This document shows, piece by piece, positions 3,472 to 53,184 of a stretch of 54,925 nucleotides of DNA. The notes under the pieces are model-generated. The model had not been told where the DNA came from and did not search any database. It worked only from the letters and a program-made list of their open reading frames with translations. Every line of letters starts with the position of its first letter. The stretch's first letter is position 1. The DNA lies in the IMG/VR virus record IMGVR_UViG_3300020021_000017, positions 1 through 54,925 of that record; one strand, written 5' to 3'. The DNA comes from a virus (taxonomy: Duplodnaviria; Caudoviricetes). A program made the translations under genes and the position numbers.

Positions 3472-5388
3472 CTATCCCGGTATACCGGGAACGTTCGGCA
3501 ACATTTGCGATGTCGGAGATTGCTCAGGTTGAGCTTGTGGAACGCCTGGTTGAGACTGCTGCGCTGGTATGGCCTGCGCCTGAAGGGCAGTAACATCTTG
3601 TATGTACTGACGCAACATATCTAAACTTGTTTCTTCGGCATTATCACGTTTAGCTCTGGCATAGTACTGAATACCAAATTGCAATGCTTGTGCTAAATCA
3701 TCGTAAGCCTCAGGAGGTGTATAAATACCTTCTTCAATGATCTTGTCTAGGCTTTCTTCAATATAATCAAGAGGAGCATTGGAAATATCTTCGTAGAAGT
3801 CTAGATCTGGAAAGTGTAACAATTGTTTACCAACTTGAGGAGAAATCATTCCAGCTTGCATTAACTTCTGTACTTCATCAAGCCGTCCTGCAGGCTCTTT
3901 AGGCAAACTCGATTCTGGGAAACATTGAATGATGAAATCATCTTTAGCTAAGTTAAACTCAGGAAAATCAATCTTTTCAACAGCATTCTTACCCGGACAA
4001 ACAGTGGAATAAGAGCCCTCTCTTTCAAAGATTTCTTGAGCTTTATCAATGATTTGATAAGCTAGGTCAATAAACATTTTCTCATAATTCTGCGCAGTTA
4101 TTGCAAATCTATCAGATGAAATGTTATCATAAGCTTTGATTGCTTCGCCTGAATCCAACCCTGCCGGCTTTTGACTAGAAGCTTGCATCTCAGATACACC
4201 TGATTGTTTATAGGCATATTGCACCAAACGATCACGTTCTTGGTATATCTCGGCAGGAACGCAGGGCGCAACTTCGTACTCTGGCTTTGTGCCTTGATAC
4301 TTTACAATAGCGCCGATCTGATTATTGATGTGAGCAGAGACAACTTTACTGCCCTCTTCCACGAACACCCTAGGAACACCAACAAGATTGATAGACTGCT
4401 GAATAACATAACAAAGTTTATTAATCTCATTCTGAATCCCCATTAACTGTTCGGCCAAACCTTGTGCCCAAAAGCCCAAAGTCCTTGGAGCATAATTAAA
4501 GAATATGAATGGGAAGGTTTTCTTGGTATATTCTTCTTTAAGCATTATCCCACTATTAATAGAGATAACATGTAGTCCATCTGTGGCGTCTGATCCCGAA
4601 GGAAGATGCCAAGATTCTACTACCATTACTTGATCAGATATTGAGCGATGAGAATCCCCACTTTGATCAAATGATCCGCCTTCTGCTGATTGTATAAGGG
4701 CTTTTTTAGAAGGGAACATTGCAGTTAATTGAGAACGATCCATTAACTTAAGTTGATGTAGTTGCCTTGGATTACCGTAAAGAGATTCAATTTCATCAAC
4801 ATAGATCTCGGTATTTAATGTGCGTTCAATGCAAACTTTATTGTCTACTTCGTAAATCTTTACAACACCGGTACCTAGAATGAAGCTATCTATACAAACT
4901 TGTTGCAATATTTCATTAGCCTTTAATCGATACAATTCTCCATCAGAGAACTTATTAAGATCTTTAGACAACTTACGTTTCTTGTAATCCCCACCTGATG
5001 TTAAGAATACAGGGCGGGGTTTAGATTGGGCGATTTTAGCTTTAAGAGTATCACAGCATGATTGGACCACATTGAGAGTTACTCGATCTGCATTATTCTT
5101 ATATTGAGCATTCATCTTGGTGAGGTTCACTCCAAGCCAAGAATATAGAGGCATGTTACCATAAAGACGGGCATAAAGAGCGGCTTGGTGCTGACGATAC
5201 AATTGATTGGTCTTAAGATAACCAACAACACCAAAGATAGTTCCAACCATTTCTTTAGCATCTAATTCCCACCACTTACCTTCAACAGCATAGTTGCCAT
5301 CTTTAATATCAAAGCCTTTGGAAGCTTTTTTCTTACTATTCTTGTTGTTAAGTGAGGCAATGGGATCATGTTTGGTAACTTTTGCCAT
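3472..5388 (-). CDS. Portal protein (P22/T7-like podoviral type)
   Basis: 638 aa, downstream of TerL; VVESW, PF...Y..R..GFW.QG..E.L...Q..IN and SG.AI motifs; Q/P-rich tail. Confidence 0.88.
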   Translation of the reverse strand: MAKVTKHDPIASLNNKNSKKKASKGFDIKDGNYAVEGKWWELDAKEMVGTIFGVVGYLKTNQLYRQHQAALYARLYGNMPLYSWLGVNLTKMNAQYKNNADRVTLNVVQSCCDTLKAKIAQSKPRPVFLTSGGDYKKRKLSKDLNKFSDGELYRLKANEILQQVCIDSFILGTGVVKIYEVDNKVCIERTLNTEIYVDEIESLYGNPRQLHQLKLMDRSQLTAMFPSKKALIQSAEGGSFDQSGDSHRSISDQVMVVESWHLPSGSDATDGLHVISINSGIMLKEEYTKKTFPFIFFNYAPRTLGFWAQGLAEQLMGIQNEINKLCYVIQQSINLVGVPRVFVEEGSKVVSAHINNQIGAIVKYQGTKPEYEVAPCVPAEIYQERDRLVQYAYKQSGVSEMQASSQKPAGLDSGEAIKAYDNISSDRFAITAQNYEKMFIDLAYQIIDKAQEIFEREGSYSTVCPGKNAVEKIDFPEFNLAKDDFIIQCFPESSLPKEPAGRLDEVQKLMQAGMISPQVGKQLLHFPDLDFYEDISNAPLDYIEESLDKIIEEGIYTPPEAYDDLAQALQFGIQYYARAKRDNAEETSLDMLRQYIQDVTALQAQAIPAQQSQPGVPQAQPEQSPTSQMLPNVPGIPG

Positions 5389-5817: not shown

Positions 5818-7263
5818 TTACTTCCGCCATTTCTCTAACTCATCGAAAAGATCTTGAGGAGCGCCGCCATTTGCTTCTTCTTCATAATGCTTTACTTCAG
5901 CTGCTTCCATTTTCTCAGCTTCTTTTTGCCAGTACGATTCTGAATATAATACAGGTGTAGGTTTTGTCGATATCTCAAAATGTGCGTTTATAGGTTTGAA
6001 TGCATATAATACTGCATCACAGATATCTGAATGAAAACGTTTACTTACTACTAATTTATCTGGAGTACTTTTGTCATAATCCCACTCCATTTTGGACGCA
6101 TCTTGTGCAAATCTGGAAGTAGGTTTGGCTTTGAAGCGACCTGTTCTAAGGCAGTCATTTAGCAAGGATATATTTTCATTTTTCCTTATCTTGTCAGCTG
6201 CTTCTACAGGCAAACTCCAGCGTTTACTAAATTCTTCTTGGATCTTTTTGCCCAAAGCCCCAGCGTCAATAATAGTTTTATATGGGGCGTATTTATGCCT
6301 AAAATACTCAATATCTTGAGCTAGAGCAGATATATCTTGTTTACGAGTTATTTTTTCTTCTATCAGATATACATCTCTAGAACCAGTCGCATAGCCTAGA
6401 ATTACTAATGCATCTGCATCTTTGAAGCCAATATCTACTCCAAGCACGTAGTTATTTATTTTGGGAGGTAATTCTGTATAACTATTTAATTTCTCATCAT
6501 AATGTATAACTAATGAATCGCTGTCTAAGATCCATTCACCGAAATACTCGCGTCTTATCGAAGGATTATTTATACTTACCCCTCTACGTTTCAATTCTGC
6601 ATTCAATAGCTCTATGTGGCTTTTACCACTTAATTGTTCTATGAATACATTATCAAAATAAGTCCAATGGTGTCTACTCCATTCTTGCGCAGAATTAGTT
6701 GAAACCTCATAAAAATACCCTGCCGGTATAGGACCGGGAGTGCCCGTTAGGATTAAAGAGCCGTCCAAGTCTAACAGTGCCGGTGCTACTACATCATCGA
6801 TAAGTTGAGTTATATATTCAGGAAATGATTGTGCTTCGTCGATAAATGCTTTTTTAAGCTTTGCAATTCCTCGAAACTTCTCAATCTCAGTGCGGTCATG
6901 GGCACCAGATACATAGATTTTTGATTCATTAGGTAAAGTTAGGCTTAACTCTACTTCATTAGTCTTTCCATCAAGTTTAAACTCCCTATTGAATTGTCTC
7001 AAAACAGGCCAGATAATCGTTTTAGCGTGAGCCCTGCTAGTAGTAATATAAAGCTGATTGCAATTAGGGTTTGTAGCAGCAGTCATAAGTAGTTCCAATG
7101 CTTCTGCGTGTGATTTACCTGCGCGTCTAGAGCACATTGCAACTTTATACTTTGAGGTATCTTCAATGAAAGCAAGTTGCTTAGGAAAGCAGAGTTTACT
7201 TAAATCTATAGTAGTATTGGAGCGTTTATTAAGCTCAGCTAGTACTTTCGTCAAATTGGACAT
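5818..7263 (-). CDS. terL: Terminase large subunit
   Basis: Walker A SRRAGKS, Walker B FIDEAQ, LTGTP coupling motif, RNase H-like GVDIG...HSDICDA. Confidence 0.95.
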   Translation of the reverse strand: MSNLTKVLAELNKRSNTTIDLSKLCFPKQLAFIEDTSKYKVAMCSRRAGKSHAEALELLMTAATNPNCNQLYITTSRAHAKTIIWPVLRQFNREFKLDGKTNEVELSLTLPNESKIYVSGAHDRTEIEKFRGIAKLKKAFIDEAQSFPEYITQLIDDVVAPALLDLDGSLILTGTPGPIPAGYFYEVSTNSAQEWSRHHWTYFDNVFIEQLSGKSHIELLNAELKRRGVSINNPSIRREYFGEWILDSDSLVIHYDEKLNSYTELPPKINNYVLGVDIGFKDADALVILGYATGSRDVYLIEEKITRKQDISALAQDIEYFRHKYAPYKTIIDAGALGKKIQEEFSKRWSLPVEAADKIRKNENISLLNDCLRTGRFKAKPTSRFAQDASKMEWDYDKSTPDKLVVSKRFHSDICDAVLYAFKPINAHFEISTKPTPVLYSESYWQKEAEKMEAAEVKHYEEEANGGAPQDLFDELEKWRK

Positions 7264-10125: not shown

Positions 10126-10583
10126 AAACTTAACCCGACCATTATACCAAATGCTGGACTATTTGTAACTTGCAAGCCTAGAGTAAATGGTCCTAGAACT
10201 GATTTAGTTAAGTAAGCACCATAACTAATTCTACCGTTAGACAAATCAATAGTACTGAGAGCGCCAATATTGAGAGTACCTTTATCGTAAGACTTTGTGC
10301 TAGTTGCCTCCGCCGTGCTATTTTCATTTGATATCTCTTCAGACTGATCACTTTCGACACTGAGATCCTTCGTGGTGGTTATGGTCGAGCCATCTACCGC
10401 CTTAGTGACAACAGTAACAATGTTGTCATGTTTAATAGTTTGTGTATCATGAACAACTTGCATTTCCGTCTGTATTTTGGTTTCTGTTACAATTTTAGCT
10501 GGAAGGGAATAATAACCAATTGCAATTCCAACTACAGTGCATATAATAGAAGTAATTATTGTATTTTTAAGACTTATTTGCAT
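10122..10583 (-). CDS. Membrane-anchored protein with C-terminal beta strands ending in Phe
   Basis: N-terminal TM helix; amphipathic strands ending ...GIMVGLSF. Confidence 0.65.
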   Translation of the reverse strand: MQISLKNTIITSIICTVVGIAIGYYSLPAKIVTETKIQTEMQVVHDTQTIKHDNIVTVVTKAVDGSTITTTKDLSVESDQSEEISNENSTAEATSTKSYDKGTLNIGALSTIDLSNGRISYGAYLTKSVLGPFTLGLQVTNSPAFGIMVGLSF

Positions 10584-10813
10584 TTACAATCACAGTGTTT
10601 TTTAGTTTTGACTTTAATCTTTCGGCATTGTTGAACAACTGGATAACTTGCATCAAAAGAAGTAAGTTTGTCATAACCCTTTTGATCGGTGTAAAGAGCT
10701 TTTCCATTCTCAACAACTTTTGTAACTTTACAGACTACTCTTGTAGGTACTAAATCACCATTAAGACTATAAACAGCTATTTTATCACCAATTTTAAATT
10801 TAGATTTATTCAT
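10574..10813 (-). CDS. Small SH3-like hypothetical protein
   Basis: KFKIGDKI start typical of phage SH3-like proteins. Confidence 0.55.
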   Translation of the reverse strand: MNKSKFKIGDKIAVYSLNGDLVPTRVVCKVTKVVENGKALYTDQKGYDKLTSFDASYPVVQQCRKIKVKTKKHCDCKCK

Positions 10814-11067
10814 TTCTTCTTACCGTTCTCTTCAATAAGTTTAGTAGCTTCAGCCTTTAGTTCTGCCTCATTCATTTTCTTCAATCGTTCCATTTCGGCA
10901 TCTGGAATGGTCTCTAGTTCCTTTAATACTTTGATATAAGCAACTAGATCACGAGCGCTAGACGCATCTAGCTTGGTACGAGAAACAGAGGTAAAAATGT
11001 GATTAATATCGCGTCGCATTGACTCTGTTGCTTTTTCCATCAAGTTTTGTATTAACTCTTTATCCAT
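10810..11067 (-). CDS. First gene of packaging operon; possible small terminase subunit
   Basis: Small helical protein at the operon head; function inferred from position only. Confidence 0.45.
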   Translation of the reverse strand: MDKELIQNLMEKATESMRRDINHIFTSVSRTKLDASSARDLVAYIKVLKELETIPDAEMERLKKMNEAELKAEATKLIEENGKKK

Positions 11068-11073
11068 ACTCTT

Positions 11074-11102
11074 AATATATACATCTTTAGCATAGTTGTC
11101 AA
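11074..11102 (-). promoter_or_regulatory. Sigma70-type promoter TTGACA-17-TATATT for the packaging operon
   Basis: Near-consensus boxes and spacing; predicted +1 falls on the ATG at 11067. Confidence 0.8.
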
Positions 11103-11134
11103 CATTTAGTTTACTTTTGTACTTGTACGTATAC

Positions 11135-11500
11135 CAGCAGTTGTCCCACAGGCATGAGGGTAAACTCTTTGTAACCGATCAGCTACAATACATATCTAAT
11201 AGGCGGTGCTATCCAAGCTGCCTAAACCCACCTACAGTACCCTGTCAGTCGCCCTTTGCACTCTCACTGCATGCCCATTAGCACCATTAATGCAGTCTGC
11301 AAAGAAACTATCTGGCATATTTCTATTGTCTCTAGCGCCAGGGAAAGATTCGGGCGAGATATGTAAGCGCCCTGCGGCCTATTTAGCACTAGAGGCATGT
11401 AGCTTTCGGTCCTGTTTAGCAGGGCCGCTCTTACGATTAGGGAAGCATTTACCCCTAACTTTTAGGCTTTATTTAAAGAGGCAGGAAAGCACTAAACAAA
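11135..11500 (+). ncRNA. Candidate large structured non-coding RNA A (~360 nt)
   Basis: About 10 helices with G-U pairs on the + strand, two long-range pairings, GC-richer than flanks, no credible ORF. Confidence 0.7.
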
Positions 11501-11864
11501 CCCGCTATCTCCTTCATATCACAAAACCCCTGCAAATACAAGTTTACATATAGAAGATTATGTGTAAAGATAGAGTAATGAACTTTATCTCTGGTACTAA
11601 AAGTGATGTAGGTAATCTTATGGTTGGCACAGTATTACTGCTAGGGATCATGGTATTATGCACTCTATATTAGAGAGCTTACGATTTGGGTTAGAACAAC
11701 TTTTATTAGATGGGACGTGGCTTATGAATTACTTTGCGTTTCTAGCCAGTAGGTTTGCGATTCGAGTACTTAAAGGTGGAATAAATCGTTGGGAACTAAT
11801 TATTTACTTGCTCTCAATTATCTTTATTGTGTACTATATATAGATAGGAGACCTTATACTGAGA

Positions 11865-12104
11865 ATGAAGAGAAGTCGAAGTAGTCAAGAAAAAATAAAA
11901 ATGATTGTATATGTAGTTATAGCTGAAGCGGCAGATTATGGTGAACCAACGGACATTATTAAAGTATTCTCCATGCGAGAAAAAGCAGAAGCGTTTAAGG
12001 ATTTGAATACTAGAGCAGATATGCCTTTTGGTGAAAAAGATATCTACTCTGGTGATCATGGGTTTCAACGTTTAGTAATTTACGAATTTAAATTGGACGA
12101 ATAA
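11865..12104 (+). CDS. Small hypothetical protein
   Basis: VYVV....IIKVFSMREKAE phage small-protein pattern. Confidence 0.6.
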   Translation: MKRSRSSQEKIKMIVYVVIAEAADYGEPTDIIKVFSMREKAEAFKDLNTRADMPFGEKDIYSGDHGFQRLVIYEFKLDE

Positions 12105-22238: not shown

Positions 22239-22346
22239 TATCTTTATACTAACGTAATATAAGGTCATTTGTCAAGTAATAATAAGCATTTAATTTAACT
22301 TGCAAATTGCAACTTCTTGTGTAATTATGGAAAAAGGAGGTGTTCT

Positions 22347-22886
22347 TTGAGCGTCATTACGTCAAATCGAAAAATAGTGTTTTCTGGAAGCATTAATGAA
22401 GAATCAACAGCCGAACTGATAGCCGCCCTGCTTTCTATGAATTGCTACACAGATGAAGAAGTAACACTAATCATCAATAGTGGTGGTGGGCATTTAGATG
22501 ATGGTATAGGTATATATGATTGTATCCGCTCCCTTCCATATAAAACTCATGGTATAGTGTTTGGGCAAGCTAGTTCTGCAGCAGTATTGATATTGCAAGC
22601 ATGTACTATGAGAACAATAGGTGAGAATTCTATTATTATGGTACATGCAGGTTCCGTAGGTATCGATGCTAGACATCCTGAGGAAACATTTAAACAAGTA
22701 AAGACTTCCGTAGATATGGTAAGAAGAACAACGAAAATCCTTGCTTTAGCTTGTGGTATTGATGTAAAATTAATGAGTAGAAGAATGAGATTCGGATCTT
22801 CTTATGTTGGACAAAAGGCTGTTGATGCGGGGTTTGTAGACAATGTACTTAAAATAGGAGATTTATACCGTGGAATTAAAGTTTAA
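22347..22886 (+). CDS. ClpP-like serine protease subunit
   Basis: INSGGG, GQASSAA (Ser), IMVH (His), A..GFVD; AGGAGG RBS with TTG start. Confidence 0.85.
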   Translation: MSVITSNRKIVFSGSINEESTAELIAALLSMNCYTDEEVTLIINSGGGHLDDGIGIYDCIRSLPYKTHGIVFGQASSAAVLILQACTMRTIGENSIIMVHAGSVGIDARHPEETFKQVKTSVDMVRRTTKILALACGIDVKLMSRRMRFGSSYVGQKAVDAGFVDNVLKIGDLYRGIKV

Positions 22887-23929: not shown

Positions 23930-24361
23930 TTAAGCTATCTCAAATAAAGCTTTTTCAGCTAATCTTCGTTTCAATAATCCAGCATTTGCGATACCATTAA
24001 TATGAGACCACTTGACGAACTCTTGGGCAGCAGAGCCAAAAGCTCCGTTGTTTACGTCAGCCAGTAAAGTACTTCGTCCTAAGTTCCCAATGCCAATGTT
24101 AAAAGCTAGGGAAACCAAAGCCGCAAACTGATTATCATTTACATTTGACTTGATAGCGTCATCGACTTGTTGCTCTGCATTTGTTAGGTCCTGAACTAGG
24201 AAAGCTTCTGCCTGATCTTGCGTAATAGAATCCCCATCACATACGCTGTGAGTATGACCATACCCAATAGTCCAAACACCGCCCTGGTCTTGATACGCGT
24301 CTAATCTACACCCTTCAAAGTGCTCAATGAGAGCCATTCCCGCTGAATTAATCTGTCTCAT
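23930..24361 (-). CDS. Endolysin, GH24 lysozyme
   Basis: FEG.RL.AYQD..GVWTIGYGHT, FAALVS.AFNIG, GL..RR..E..LF. Confidence 0.95.
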   Translation of the reverse strand: MRQINSAGMALIEHFEGCRLDAYQDQGGVWTIGYGHTHSVCDGDSITQDQAEAFLVQDLTNAEQQVDDAIKSNVNDNQFAALVSLAFNIGIGNLGRSTLLADVNNGAFGSAAQEFVKWSHINGIANAGLLKRRLAEKALFEIA

Positions 24362-24945
24362 TATTTTTCAACCAAGCAATAAAGTAGCATTGCAGTAACC
24401 ATTCCACCTAAATGAGCAGCAAATGCTGTCCCAGTGGGCATTACAATAGCTGTACAAGTTGCAATGTATTGTGACATAAACAAAAACGCCATGAATAGAA
24501 TACTAAGTACTCTTACTATCTTATTCTCTTTGCAAGAAAGCAGGGCGTAAAATACACAGCCGCTTATAGCCACAGAACTACCGAGTAATTCAGTCCACCC
24601 AAACAGGCTGGGAGTAATCATGAAGAATAGAGAGCCACATACCCCCGTAATAAACCATATTGCAAGGAACTTTAGGGAACCTATTTTACGCTCTAAATAG
24701 ATGCATAAGGGACCGCCAAATACGAAATTTCCAGTTAAGTGTATGAAGCCAGAATGAGCAAACATATGAGTGATCATATGTAGTATACTAAGGACACCAA
24801 TACCATCTTCGTATTTAACTGCTAATTGGTCCATTAAGCCAGGATAAAATAAAGATGTTACGTATGCAATAGCACTAAGAAGGAACATTGAGAAGAACGC
24901 TATCGGGGAGTGTTTTGATGAAGGTCGTGGTTTTTTGCTTAACAT
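24361..24945 (-). CDS. Rhomboid-family intramembrane serine protease
   Basis: HMFAH...HL.GN, LE..IG, G-S-S (catalytic Ser), AHLGG (catalytic His); about 6 TM helices. Confidence 0.85.
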   Translation of the reverse strand: MLSKKPRPSSKHSPIAFFSMFLLSAIAYVTSLFYPGLMDQLAVKYEDGIGVLSILHMITHMFAHSGFIHLTGNFVFGGPLCIYLERKIGSLKFLAIWFITGVCGSLFFMITPSLFGWTELLGSSVAISGCVFYALLSCKENKIVRVLSILFMAFLFMSQYIATCTAIVMPTGTAFAAHLGGMVTAMLLYCLVEK

Positions 24946-44333: not shown

Positions 44334-45068
44334 TTACATACCGCCATTAGGACCGTCACTGCCATAAGATCCATACGCTCTATTCATTCTCTGTACGTCA
44401 GAAATAGTATCAGGCATTCCTTCATCGCGATTAGTAGATGCACCGTTAATACGAACTACTAAAGCTGCCTTCTGTGCCATTAACACAGACACATCTGATT
44501 CTTCTTTTTGCATTGCTCTGATGGCCGCGTCAACAATGATGTAATCTGTCCATTGACCGGGTGTGACTGGAACATCTGTGCTAAGTACAAGGGGCGCAAG
44601 TACCGGTATATACCAAAGTCTGAAAGATTGTGAACCTGACGGTAGGGGGATGAATCGTATCATGTTACCGATTATTCGATATCTTAGATTTAAAACACCT
44701 AAGTACGTTGTAGGCGTATTACCGTAAACATATTTGTTGCGGTCTGCAAAGTTATATTTGCCTAGCGTAATCCAGGCATCAGTTGGACCAGAAATATGTG
44801 CTGCTAAAGAAATGTCTACGCCCATAAGTTTGTAGAAGTTTGCTGGCAGGGGGTAGTGGCTGGTGAGGCCTGTGAAGGTGAAAATGGGTGGCGGTAGAAC
44901 GGTAAAGTAATCTTCATATACGGTTACAAGAAGATCATAAAGTTCTAGGTAGGCTGCATTGATGTAGTTAGTCCATTCGGGATCAGTGACGAAGTTAGAA
45001 TTAACTAGGTCTGAGCGCTGCTTGGCTTGAAGGATTATAGTATCTAATGTGAGTGAATTTGGGTCCAT
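44334..45068 (-). CDS. Head-tail adaptor / tail tubular protein A-like
   Basis: D.E...YIN.A..EL, YPLPANF, P.PSGS...L.Y. Confidence 0.75.
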   Translation of the reverse strand: MDPNSLTLDTIILQAKQRSDLVNSNFVTDPEWTNYINAAYLELYDLLVTVYEDYFTVLPPPIFTFTGLTSHYPLPANFYKLMGVDISLAAHISGPTDAWITLGKYNFADRNKYVYGNTPTTYLGVLNLRYRIIGNMIRFIPLPSGSQSFRLWYIPVLAPLVLSTDVPVTPGQWTDYIIVDAAIRAMQKEESDVSVLMAQKAALVVRINGASTNRDEGMPDTISDVQRMNRAYGSYGSDGPNGGM

Positions 45069-45996: not shown

Positions 45997-47292
45997 CTAG
46001 GCTGACAACCGGATTACGCAGTTCCAACCAGGCGCACTAGTGATCAAATTGGCATAATAACCAATTCGGATCTCTAATGCATCCGCAGTACCAACGCGAA
46101 GACCTTCAAGGCCTTCCATGCCGTACGTGAGGATATGAGGCGCTTTTCCAAGCGACCGCAGCTTCCACACGTCTAGCTCCAGGAGGTAGCACATCTGCTG
46201 TGGGCAGTTACGGTCAGGAATGACCGTGATCGGGCCGTACGGAGCATGAACAGTGATACCCTTAAACGCGATATCTCCCATGCCACCTTCACCGTCATCG
46301 CCGCGCACATCAACATATTGCACCTTACTTCCCAATTCTTTTTCAAGAGCTGAGTAGGATGCGAAGTTCATGAAGCACATTTCAGGCGCTCCGCCTTCTC
46401 GTGCAACAAGTGAACTTCCGTCAATGAGGGCTTCTTCGATTGATTCGCCTGATCCGTCAAAACGGACGCCTGCGAGTCTGGTCACATCAACTGATCTGTC
46501 CACTCCCCAGAAACTGTCGCCAGTAACAGGAGCAATGAACGGCAACCACGCGGCTAAACCAGCAACCTTCAAGAACGAAGTCGTTCCAGAAGCGCCAGCT
46601 GCACCGATGTCACCCTGCGCCACTAGGAAGCTCAAGGCCGCCCATTGTGCAGAAGGAGTTGCACTTGAGGATAACAGAATCAACTGACCCGTAGATCGAT
46701 TAACATTGGTGACTTGAGCAGTCGTAGCAGAAGGAACGCCGCCATCAGTAGCAGTTGCAACTAACGTCATTCCAACTTCGAACTGTACGATGTCATTCGT
46801 GTCAAGCAGAACGATCGTGATGACCGTACCGACCAACGCGTATGTACCAATTTGTCCGCGTGTACCCGTTCCACTGCGGAACAAGTCACCGGCTAAGTCA
46901 TTCGAGATCGAACGAAATGAGGCATCAACCTGGAGCTTGCCTTCGTCCAAAAACGCACCCGCATTCTGTCCCGTTGCGGCTTCGAGAAGCTCGTTCGAGA
47001 TAGATGCGATCACGTAGTTGCTTACTCGGAATACAAAGAAACTTTGCATCTGAGTAGGCGTTTGATTAAGCTGAGCATTCGCAAACGTAGCGGATCTTCC
47101 TTGCGGAGTTCCGTAGATCAACGGCACGGGAATATACTTTCCCGCGAACCCTTGAGGACTTTCGTCCTTAGGGATAATGGCCAACATCGGATTCTTTTTA
47201 TAAACTAGATCTTTCATGTACTCGGTAGGATTGTCGTACAATTCCTTGAGTGCAGCGATCTGGTTCGTTGCATTATTAAAAACTGGAGGCAT
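45997..47292 (-). CDS. Major capsid protein (HK97 fold inferred)
   Basis: 431 aa after the scaffold; ALKELY, F..G.G, PD..CP...Y.L...W; GC-richer codons; downstream hairpin. Confidence 0.88.
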   Translation of the reverse strand: MPPVFNNATNQIAALKELYDNPTEYMKDLVYKKNPMLAIIPKDESPQGFAGKYIPVPLIYGTPQGRSATFANAQLNQTPTQMQSFFVFRVSNYVIASISNELLEAATGQNAGAFLDEGKLQVDASFRSISNDLAGDLFRSGTGTRGQIGTYALVGTVITIVLLDTNDIVQFEVGMTLVATATDGGVPSATTAQVTNVNRSTGQLILLSSSATPSAQWAALSFLVAQGDIGAAGASGTTSFLKVAGLAAWLPFIAPVTGDSFWGVDRSVDVTRLAGVRFDGSGESIEEALIDGSSLVAREGGAPEMCFMNFASYSALEKELGSKVQYVDVRGDDGEGGMGDIAFKGITVHAPYGPITVIPDRNCPQQMCYLLELDVWKLRSLGKAPHILTYGMEGLEGLRVGTADALEIRIGYYANLITSAPGWNCVIRLSA

Positions 47293-52401: not shown

Positions 52402-53184
52402 ATGAAATATAAATTTACTGGATTAACGAAAATTGCTGCAGGTATTACACTGCGACAAATTATTCGTAAAGCAGATAAAAAGATCGGCGGTTGGATTGAG
52501 AAAGAAACTAATCTAGCTCAAAATGGCGATGCTTGGGTATATGGCGATGCTCGGGTATATGGCGATGCTCGGGTGTACGGTGATGCTCAGGTGTACGGCA
52601 ATGCTCAGGTGTATGGCAATGCTCGGGTATATGGCACTGCTTGGATATTCGGCAATGCTCAGGTGTATAGCAATGCTCAGGTGTACGTCAATGCTCAGGT
52701 GTATGGCAATGCTCGGGTATATGGCACTGCTTGGATATTCGGCGATGCTTGGGTATATGGCGATGCTCGGGTGTACGGTGATGCTCGGGTATACAGCAAT
52801 GCTCAGGTATACGGCGCTGCTTGGGTATATGGCAATACTTGGGTATACGGCGATGTTCGGGTGTACGGTGATGCTCAGGTGTATGGCAATGCTCAGGTGT
52901 ATGGCAATGCTCGGGTATATGGCACTGCTTGGATATTCGGCAATGCTCAGGTGTACGGCAATGCTCAGGTGCTTCAATCAATAGATATTATAAATATTAT
53001 AATCCGCCCTTATTCAATAACTATCACTCCGCAAAACATCGTTATTGGGTGTCAAATGAGATCTAGGTTTGGAAAAGAACAATGGAAAGTAACCGATAAA
53101 GGCGTAACTGCGAATTTAATTAAACAATATAAGCCTTTTCTTTCTTTACTTAAAAAACAAGTTCCTCGTAGTAAAGGAAAGTAA
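52402..53184 (+). CDS. Hexapeptide-repeat (left-handed beta-helix) protein, copy 1, 25 repeats
   Basis: GGWIEKETNL followed by G(D/N)A(R/Q/W)VY 18-bp repeats at 52525-52974. Confidence 0.9.
   Translation: MKYKFTGLTKIAAGITLRQIIRKADKKIGGWIEKETNLAQNGDAWVYGDARVYGDARVYGDAQVYGNAQVYGNARVYGTAWIFGNAQVYSNAQVYVNAQVYGNARVYGTAWIFGDAWVYGDARVYGDARVYSNAQVYGAAWVYGNTWVYGDVRVYGDAQVYGNAQVYGNARVYGTAWIFGNAQVYGNAQVLQSIDIINIIIRPYSITITPQNIVIGCQMRSRFGKEQWKVTDKGVTANLIKQYKPFLSLLKKQVPRSKGK

Follow-up and report, generated by a model that had tools for sequence, protein, structure and literature searches.

A conserved and probably structured RNA in the gap between two divergent phage operons, with a possible role in early-gene control by alternative pairing

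The record IMGVR_UViG_3300020021_000017 holds 54,925 bp of viral DNA (completeness estimate 43%), analysed here as one stretch and referred to below as the window. Two divergent operons in the window are separated by a non-coding gap of ~510 nt at the head of the early/replication module, and the element described here lies within that gap. Comparison with a single related contig gives us high confidence that the gap holds a genuine conserved RNA structure. Our favoured explanation, in which we have moderate confidence, is that positions ~11189–11508, perhaps on to 11578, form a structured plus-strand RNA of ~320–390 nt, from a new family, that regulates the early/replication operon by alternative pairing. 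An initial annotation of the window had proposed a large RNA at this place from 12 listed pairings, all of which are present and fully complementary at their coordinates (TGTCAG, listed without a position, was located at 11243–11248 and used in the pair test). The comparison alone raised eight of the 12 above chance.

The relative was obtained by a scan of viral contigs for the terminase large subunit (TerL), which returned one related contig, L002, with 72% amino acid identity in TerL; L007, L060 and L186 are the same contig. Other proteins shared by the two phages include a 153-aa neighbour (49% identity), the 85-aa first leftward protein (64%), a 311-aa protein (71%) and a helicase-like protein (74%). 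Synteny is kept, and a gap of ~480 nt stands at the same place in L002 and is also GC-enriched (0.48 vs 0.33–0.43). Seven collinear short blocks are common to the two gaps, and the length of the segment 11189–11400 differs by 3 nt or less between phages whose core proteins are 71–74% identical. For the small open reading frames (ORFs) just downstream, similarity between the window and L002 was undetectable by BLASTP. Judged from these sequences, the element appears to be better conserved than its neighbours.

The features of the element are as follows, from 5′ to 3′:

11189–11197, plus strand: X, the 5′ strand of the long-range helix P1, TACATATCT, with a 9-nt perfect complement at 11357–11365
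11200–11224, plus strand: hairpin P2, TAGGCGG/CTGCCTA, with the conserved loop start T(G/A)CTAT
11243–11317, plus strand: domain closed by TGTCAG/CTGGCA, holding P3 (11254–11260/11298–11304) and P3a (11266–11272/11290–11296)
11305–11330, plus strand: conserved joining strand, AA.AAA.CT.T ... TTTCTNTTGTC
11327–11397, plus strand: P4 domain with stem TGTCTCTAG/CTAGAGGCA, enclosing P5 and the conserved GCGGCC at 11374–11379
11352–11372, plus strand: hairpin P5, GGGCG/CGCCC, whose 11-nt loop bears X′, AGATATGTA (11357–11365), the 3′ strand of P1
11407–11427, plus strand: hairpin P6, CGGTCCTG/CAGGGCCG, with a positional counterpart in L002
11437–11458, plus strand: hairpin P7, TTAGGG/CCCTAA, found in the window only
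11466–11490, plus strand: hairpin P8, GCTTT/AAAGC, with a 15-nt loop
11495–11508, plus strand: invariant 3′ motif A(C/G)AAACCCGCTA, including a 10-mer (11498–11507) that is exact in both phages
11543–11568, plus strand: start-proximal copies of X and X′ in a hairpin, TTTACATATAG/TTATGTGTAAA, with an 11-bp stem, 9 nt before the ATG at 11578

The structure had been drawn without knowledge of L002 and was tested on a structure-blind MAFFT alignment of the window and L002 (alignment A4). On this alignment the 55 pairs in eight helices gave 96 paired cells out of 110 (window, 55/55; L002, 41/55). Thirteen of the 55 pairs were altered on both sides yet still paired, compared with 0–5 in controls slid by 1–3 columns, in which 29–48% of cells paired. 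The subset of helices that lie in register comprises 31 pairs (P1, 6; P2, 7; P3a, 6; P4, 8; P5, 4) and gave 61 paired cells out of 62, with nine double changes, no one-sided change, one mismatch and 21 of 31 pairs invariant, counts that are inflated by construction because the set was picked with both sequences known. A structure-blind scan was added for that reason, in which helices of 5 bp or more that occur in both sequences of A4 were counted against a null of 1000 column shuffles. It found 10 helices against a shuffle mean of 2.7 (8 of 1000 shuffles as high) and 10 compensated pairs against a mean of 2.1 (3 of 1000 as high). RNAalifold, run on the same alignment, recovered P1, P2 and P3a unaided. 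The plus strand was assigned because G·U pairs are kept in both phages and no A·C pair is; the initial annotation had read the wobbles in the same way, and G·U 11205/11219 and U·G 11329/11395 are indeed common to both phages, with A·C at none of the 31 in-register pairs.

Five helices match in register and carry compensatory changes: the long-range P1, P2, P3a, P4 and P5. All seven pairs of P2 are kept in L002, with one double change from U-A to G-C and a G·U common to both, and six of seven are kept in P3a, with two double changes. P4 keeps seven of nine pairs, including a conserved U·G, with two double changes and one internal mismatch. The counterpart of P5 is GGTAGG/CCTACC with the loop GTGTGCTAG in the same columns; four of five columns are paired and two are changed on both sides. 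Positional counterparts were found in L002 for P3, P6 and P8. For P3, this is an 8-bp stem, TTTATTAC/GTAATAAA, at the same 3′ position, given a shorter internal loop; the stem that closes this domain, TGTCAG/CTGGCA, pairs at four of six positions. The L002 counterpart of P6 is a bulged hairpin of 9 bp, unrelated in sequence, that starts 5 nt past the shared GGCATGT (6 nt in the window), and the support for P6 is positional only because the two are not in register. At P8, L002 has CAGTCTT/AAGACTG, also with a 15-nt loop, standing on a shared AG(G/T)CTTTAT block with the register shifted.

Conservation extends to strands between the helices. A gapless 44-nt block at 11287–11330 is identical to L002 at 29 of 44 positions, counted by eye, and the N of TTTCTNTTGTC covaries with position 11200, which gives an alternative 5-bp helix (ATAGG/TCTAT vs AGAGG/TCTCT). 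Pairing of the 5′ strand of P2 with TTTCTNTTGTC is thus a possible second candidate for an alternative fold. The invariant GCGGCC (window 11374–11379; L002 6423–6428), which contains a GGCC palindrome, lies 3′ of P5, and RNAalifold pairs it with the invariant GGCATGT in competition with P4. The 3′ motif AAACCCGCTA is not repeated in the window beyond chance, was absent from the unrelated loci fetched and gave no pairing partner; it was also considered as a repeated promoter word and rejected, as it is not repeated.

P1 appears to be the best-supported tertiary contact. The initial annotation had described two long-range pairings, one of which, 11189–11197/11357–11365, recurs in L002 with two double changes, whereas the other, between the loops TGCTA and TAGCA, is not kept. 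X in L002 is TAGCACACC, just 5′ of P2, and pairs over 9 bp with GGTGTGCTA in the homologous hairpin loop; this 9-nt Watson-Crick run was matched in 20 of 20000 shuffles of the 30-nt 5′ segment. Six pairs of P1 are common to the two phages in register, and both double changes are from U-A to C-G. The helix spans from a single strand ~160 nt upstream to the P5 loop. It crosses P4 and P5, both of which have compensatory changes of their own, and therefore P1 would be either a pseudoknot or an alternative fold.

The words that make up P1 occur again beside the first rightward start codon, in start-proximal segments that can be aligned between the window and L002. The window loop is complementary to 11189–11197 (9 nt) and to 11544–11551 (8 nt; loop 11359–11366). 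In L002 the third copy, GGTGTGCTA, is exact, stands 4 nt ahead of the ATG and overlaps a Shine-Dalgarno-like AGGTG; TAGCACACC occurs once and GGTGTGCTA twice in that phage, and every exact copy lies within this gap. The motif positions are 6609–6617, 6438–6446 and 6223–6231 in L002, and 11189–11197, 11357–11365, 11544–11553 and 11558–11566 in the window. The L002 5′ segment has a 9-nt run with the 30 nt preceding the ATG, which 30 of 20000 shuffles matched. Duplex energies of -14.9 and -15.1 kcal/mol indicate that X in L002 pairs equally well with either copy, and in the nested minimum free energy (MFE) fold of L002 the whole leader is closed by X and the start-proximal copy (8.86 expected bp). 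The corresponding energies in the window are -9.7 and -5.3 kcal/mol; X forms 7 bp with the start-proximal copy at the lower stability, and a local hairpin takes its place. The two L002 segments 6223–6256 and 6438–6469 form an imperfect direct repeat of ~32 nt (TAAAACAA..TTTTTTG..GGTGTGCTA on the element strand), which duplicates the surroundings of the hairpin loop upstream of the start. The window version of this repeat is weaker (GAAAGATT..ATATGTAAG vs GAAGATTATGTGTAAAG).

The RNA lies upstream of the first rightward gene and is probably continuous with it: the G·U polarity puts it on the coding strand, the first plus-strand ORF starts at 11578, and the layout of L002 is the same. Under our favoured explanation, X would have two competing partners, the decoy loop within the folded domain and the copy near the start codon. 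How accessible the start of the first early gene is would then depend on the fold of the large domain, and a ligand, a protein or the kinetics of transcription might stabilise one of the two folds. A more specific version, which we consider unlikely as a whole, is a large pseudoknotted sensor or switch of at least 320 nt in which binding of an effector, or self-association through the exposed loop and the GGCC strand, would release the 5′ strand to close the start region; such a switch would be a long-range decoy-based riboregulator without an Rfam relative. The design is open to test: a short word occurs in three or four covarying copies, of which one is displayed by a hairpin loop and another adjoins a start codon. 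If the explanation holds, it adds an RNA family from a phage lineage without a cultured relative and provides a compact system for long-range decoy pairing in early-gene control.

Several observations weigh against this explanation. The whole comparison consists of two sequences, and the in-register counts carry the inflation described above. Four of the 12 pairings of the initial annotation are unsupported. AGGGTA/TACCCT falls in part within ~42 nt that are missing from L002. The closing stem GCTTTC (11402–11407)/GAAAGC (11485–11490) pairs at three of six positions in L002, and the local hairpin 11466–11470/11486–11490 has a counterpart there instead. TTAGGG/CCCTAA has six of six pairs in the window and three of six at the same columns of L002, and the loop pair TGCTA/TAGCA matches at three of five positions with no compensation. 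A near-identical 151-nt freshwater metagenome contig (X4; a single contig, depth 4.7) differs from the window at six positions, of which four were listed; two of these, G11292>A (C·A in P3a) and T11313>C (stem TGTCAG/CTGGCA), break pairs unless they are compensated at the two unlisted positions near the contig ends. Within one molecule, only 1–2 loop nt would remain if P5 were closed and P1 complete, and so the two cannot both form fully. The phages also differ in detail, the window having four motif copies with weak pairing between X and the start-proximal copy, and L002 having three.

Folding energy is a further point on this side. The initial annotation had named folding no better than shuffled controls as grounds for giving up the RNA, and by that measure the window alone would fail, its fold being at chance. 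The plus strand has an MFE of -103.2 kcal/mol, compared with a mean of -98.2 +/- 5.2 in shuffled sequences (z = -0.96), of which 13 of 100 fold at least as well; the minus strand has z = 0.00, and a 9-nt perfect inverted repeat was equalled or exceeded in 64 of 300 dinucleotide shuffles of the window. With z = -0.80 for L002, the MFE scores are ordinary in both phages. As for the limits of the transcript, a promoter scan upstream of X found none in either phage, and no terminator-like site was found by scan. Finally, if the rightward operon starts at the promoter-like site that overlaps the start-proximal hairpin (see below) and its message is leaderless, as the leftward one seems to be, the start-proximal copy would be promoter DNA, and the cis model would fail.

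That promoter-like site was recognised by eye, as TTTACA-17-AAAGAT with an upstream TG, overlapping the 11543–11568 hairpin and ending 6 nt before the ATG at 11578. In L002, TGcTAAGAT ends 6 nt before the second ATG, and the common form is TGn(T/A)AAGAT. Its reading as a promoter is an inference of ours, and the promoter scan does not report the site. On the other side of the gap, one promoter was found by the scan:

11074–11102, minus strand: leftward promoter TTGACA-17-TATATT, 11 of 12 matches, ending 6 nt before the ATG at 11067 and bounding the element on the left

The leftward promoter of L002 (TTGACA-17-TAGTAT with an upstream TG, 6660–6698) has the same layout, and the block GTTGTCAA at this promoter is common to the two phages. 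The leftward message looks leaderless in both because the promoters end 6–7 nt before the ATG. An exact 9-mer, TAGCATAGT (window 11088–11096; L002 6629–6637), is found to one side of the leftward -35 box in the window and to the other side in L002; about one shared 9-mer is expected by chance between two 500-nt stretches.

These promoter sites bear on an alternative that we regard as doubtful, in which the same conserved structure belongs to a stand-alone trans-acting or self-assembling non-coding RNA gene, with its own promoter in 11103–11188, a 3′ end near 11510 and a leaderless rightward operon at 11578. The exposed loop and X would then contact another RNA, a protein or, as the initial annotation had suggested by analogy with pRNA, ROOL and GOLLD, copies of the RNA itself. 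This would fit the end of the conserved blocks at AAACCCGCTA (11498–11507), ~70 nt before the ATG, and the promoter-like sites that in each phage end 6 nt short of a rightward ATG, in keeping with a leftward operon that looks leaderless too. An intermolecular contact would also relieve the conflict between P1 and P5, and the conserved GCGGCC has its GGCC palindrome. However, the scans gave neither a promoter nor a terminator for such a gene, and the second loop-loop contact needed by a ring model is not conserved. Genome-wide, X is not enriched (22 matches vs 21.2 expected with one mismatch allowed), hence no set of trans targets is visible, and there is no Rfam match to a large ornate RNA or to packaging RNA (pRNA). 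A stand-alone gene would also leave the motif copies beside the start codon unexplained.

The same motif copies could be sites for a phage protein in a replication origin or a set of operators, with a shift in specificity that mimics RNA covariation, although we judge a DNA element of this kind to be quite improbable. The motif is repeated in both orientations (three times in L002, four times in the window), and one set lies over the putative rightward promoter; the start-proximal pair of the window forms an 11-4-11 palindrome over the promoter-like site, and the imperfect ~32-nt repeat of L002 surrounds both GGTGTGCTA copies. The position at the head of the replication module and the succession of a GC-rich element and an AT-rich stretch would also suit an origin. 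Protein sites would account for P1 only, however. The local stems P2, P3a, P4 and P5 have compensatory changes and keep G·U pairs, which would be A·C mismatches in DNA and on the other strand. In each phage the middle copy coincides exactly with the loop of a hairpin that covaries, inter-helix lengths are kept within 3 nt over 210 nt, and there is no regular iteron array.

It is very improbable that the gap has no specific function and is a GC-rich remnant of a decayed gene or insertion, with chance stems and residual homology to L002: single-sequence statistics are at chance, two sequences were compared, a 115-aa ORF is open in the window, and 21 of the 31 in-register pairs never vary and are hence uninformative, but seven collinear blocks and 9–13 pair-keeping double changes persist where neutral DNA should be randomised, because the core proteins are 71–74% identical and the adjacent small ORFs are beyond BLASTP detection, only 3 of 1000 column shuffles attain as much compensation, and the ORFs are not conserved.

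The view of the initial annotation that the stretch has no credible ORF has to be qualified, as a 115-aa ORF with a GTG start is open across 11206–11553; it has no Pfam match and is not conserved in L002. No BLASTP similarity was found between it and the longest ORF of the L002 gap (66 aa), which also lacks a Pfam match, and the conserved blocks shift reading frame between the two phages. The stretch appears from its sequence to be non-coding. It is GC-richer than its flanks, as the annotation had said: 0.455–0.505 (11100–11499) compared with 0.305–0.375 (10400–11099) and 0.325–0.385 (11400–12099). A search for tRNA and tmRNA detected none, again in agreement with the annotation. The Rfam check it had proposed was run with Rfam 15 (4227 models, which we take to include ROOL, GOLLD, OLE, phage pRNA, C4, 6S, T-box and the riboswitch classes) and gave no match at the gathering score over the whole window. 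A permissive scan (E<=10) of 10900–11900 gave two weak matches, both outside the core (mir-2355 at 10972–11044 and Ocean-VII at 11584–11600), and one of L002 6100–6800 at the same threshold gave only one weak match, to a miRNA.

Among known systems, one likeness is to the c4 RNA of P1 and P7 and the CI RNA of P4. These are processed stable RNAs of ~70–80 nt from an immunity region, with a known layout of a/b and seqA/B/C sites. The element may resemble them in its place at the start of the operon that it would regulate, in a hairpin loop whose recognition word has complements nearby on both its 5′ and 3′ sides (window 11357–11366 vs 11189–11197 and 11544–11551), and in complementary words that change together between related phages. 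It is unlike them in having no covariance-model match, a core of ~320 nt in place of ~70–80 nt, a loop inside a multi-helix domain and no immunity genes nearby; in L002, moreover, it is X, and not the loop, that has two partners. A published account describes C4 as an antisense RNA that shares an operon with icd/ant and represses that operon (PMC8198154). Riboswitches and autoregulatory leaders with alternative anti-Shine-Dalgarno pairing are similar in lying directly upstream of a same-strand gene and possibly in combining a large domain with mutually exclusive pairings that involve start-proximal sequence. They differ in that no known aptamer class matches, the downstream genes imply no ligand or protein, and the ~370–390 nt between the competing strands would be unusually long.

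ROOL, GOLLD and OLE are likewise large, multi-helix, GC-rich relative to their surroundings and phage-borne, with conserved unpaired blocks, and form homo-oligomers according to one report (PMC12286853). The element departs from them in having no model match in either phage, a smaller core, no tRNA nearby and no conserved loop pair of intermolecular appearance. The pRNA of phi29 is also a phage RNA with complementary loops. For the element, no model matches, TGCTA/TAGCA is not kept in L002, the adjoining operon is the early/replication one, and the capsid and adaptor are SU10-like; a phi29-type pRNA was rejected in view of the unconserved loop pair and the distance to TerL, 3.8 kb off behind 11 other ORFs. 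The tests made gave no supporting evidence for the idea of multimers and packaging. We also rejected a guide or partner RNA of a mobile-element protein (retron msr/msd, omega RNA or bridge RNA), since there is no adjacent reverse transcriptase, TnpB/IscB or IS110 gene; none of these families was found with Pfam or PHROG in 10 neighbouring, 10 downstream and 20 further window proteins.

To our knowledge, few large structured phage RNAs have been described and almost none has had its mechanism worked out. The element is of a familiar general kind but probably represents a new RNA family; a full-text literature search for related descriptions gave nothing specific. The viral screen of Fremin et al. 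(2023) required at least three unique IMG/VR regions and had candidates of 29–151 nt (PMC10690425). On those terms, a two-member element of 320 nt would not pass the screen whole; a fragment of it may stand in the supplementary tables.

Genes on either side of the gap place it in its operons:

3472–5388, minus strand: portal protein, in the leftward operon
5818–7263, minus strand: TerL, 3.8 kb from the element with 11 other ORFs in between
11578–11673, plus strand: first rightward ORF, 31 aa with a hydrophobic C-terminus, overlapping the following ORF (11658–11843)

The initial annotation had placed the RNA back-to-back with the terminase/portal operon. A leftward operon does start at 11067, but it runs through 11 small ORFs before TerL, and TerL and portal lie 3.8–5.7 kb further along; because of the 3.8 kb to TerL, the link to packaging is weak. 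The rightward operon begins with the small hydrophobic or membrane ORFs at 11578 and 11658, followed by a MazG-like dATP/dGTP diphosphohydrolase and a DnaB-like ATPase/helicase and, further along, a family A DNA polymerase (PolA), an exonuclease and a ClpP-like protease. The counterpart of the first rightward ORF in L002 encodes 35 aa and is ATGA-coupled to the next gene. No sequence similarity was detectable between the two first ORFs, and the gene call at 11578 is tentative for that reason. A scan of 34 window proteins gave no repressor, antirepressor or integrase families, and genes for lysogeny or immunity are absent from the neighbourhood.

The lineage of these phages appears to be very sparsely sampled and without a cultured relative. 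The element (blastn) and its 8-kb surroundings (megablast) had no match among GenBank phages, and TerL had none by tblastn in 50,697 GenBank phage records at E<=1e-5. A TerL alignment of 40 loci contained one at 54% identity (L021), but with merely 1 kb of upstream sequence, and the others at 39% or less; three IMG/VR contigs exceeded 35% identity in TerL. Alignments of neighbour proteins recovered the L002 contig alone, as did a three-block DNA pattern, and metagenome scans for homologues gave none. The pattern AGGCGGTRCTAT..CTGCCT occurred at 18 loci, all of which, besides the L002 contig, were chance or terminator-like hairpins and were discarded. The pattern TTAATNCAG-N24-TTTCTNTTGTC (73 viral and 53 genome loci) was discarded as well, since none of 125 loci examined had any of four accompanying motifs and there was no blastn similarity. 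An exact 21-mer search returned no locus. A covariance model (R1), searched over the window and 41 loci (467 kb), found its own three training copies, with the next best match at E = 0.36. GTACCCT as an alignment anchor proved to be false homology, which made the anchored Needleman-Wunsch alignment and its RNAalifold fold uninformative, and an all-against-all comparison of stems was too noisy for use. The practical limit is that the collections searched contain only two members of the family.

In metagenomes, the sequence was detected in six runs from soil and freshwater, with no RNA run among them, and reads from four DNA runs gave only fragments of ~100–210 nt. Relatives are present in the freshwater runs X3–X5 at shares of 0.10–0.25. 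A hairpin near-identical to P2 of L002 (93–96% over 25–28 nt) occurs in four unrelated viral contigs (L005 3953–3974, L006 108–129, L019 3359–3380 and L020 1904–1925); the L019 copy stands at the junction of two minus-strand ORFs, is followed by TTT and is terminator-like. This hairpin may be a chance match or a widespread hairpin word.

Elsewhere in the window, the genes at 44334–45068 and 45997–47292 encode an adaptor protein that matches the SU10 adaptor family (E 1.3e-08) and a major capsid protein with a weak SU10-like match (E 0.00013, under the Pfam cut-off); together these hint at a distant kuravirus-like podovirus. The ClpP-like protease, a rhomboid-domain membrane protein and a YdcK beta-solenoid/bactofilin-like protein (22317–22886, 24361–24945 and 52402–53184) are also encoded and would be unusual cargo for a phage.

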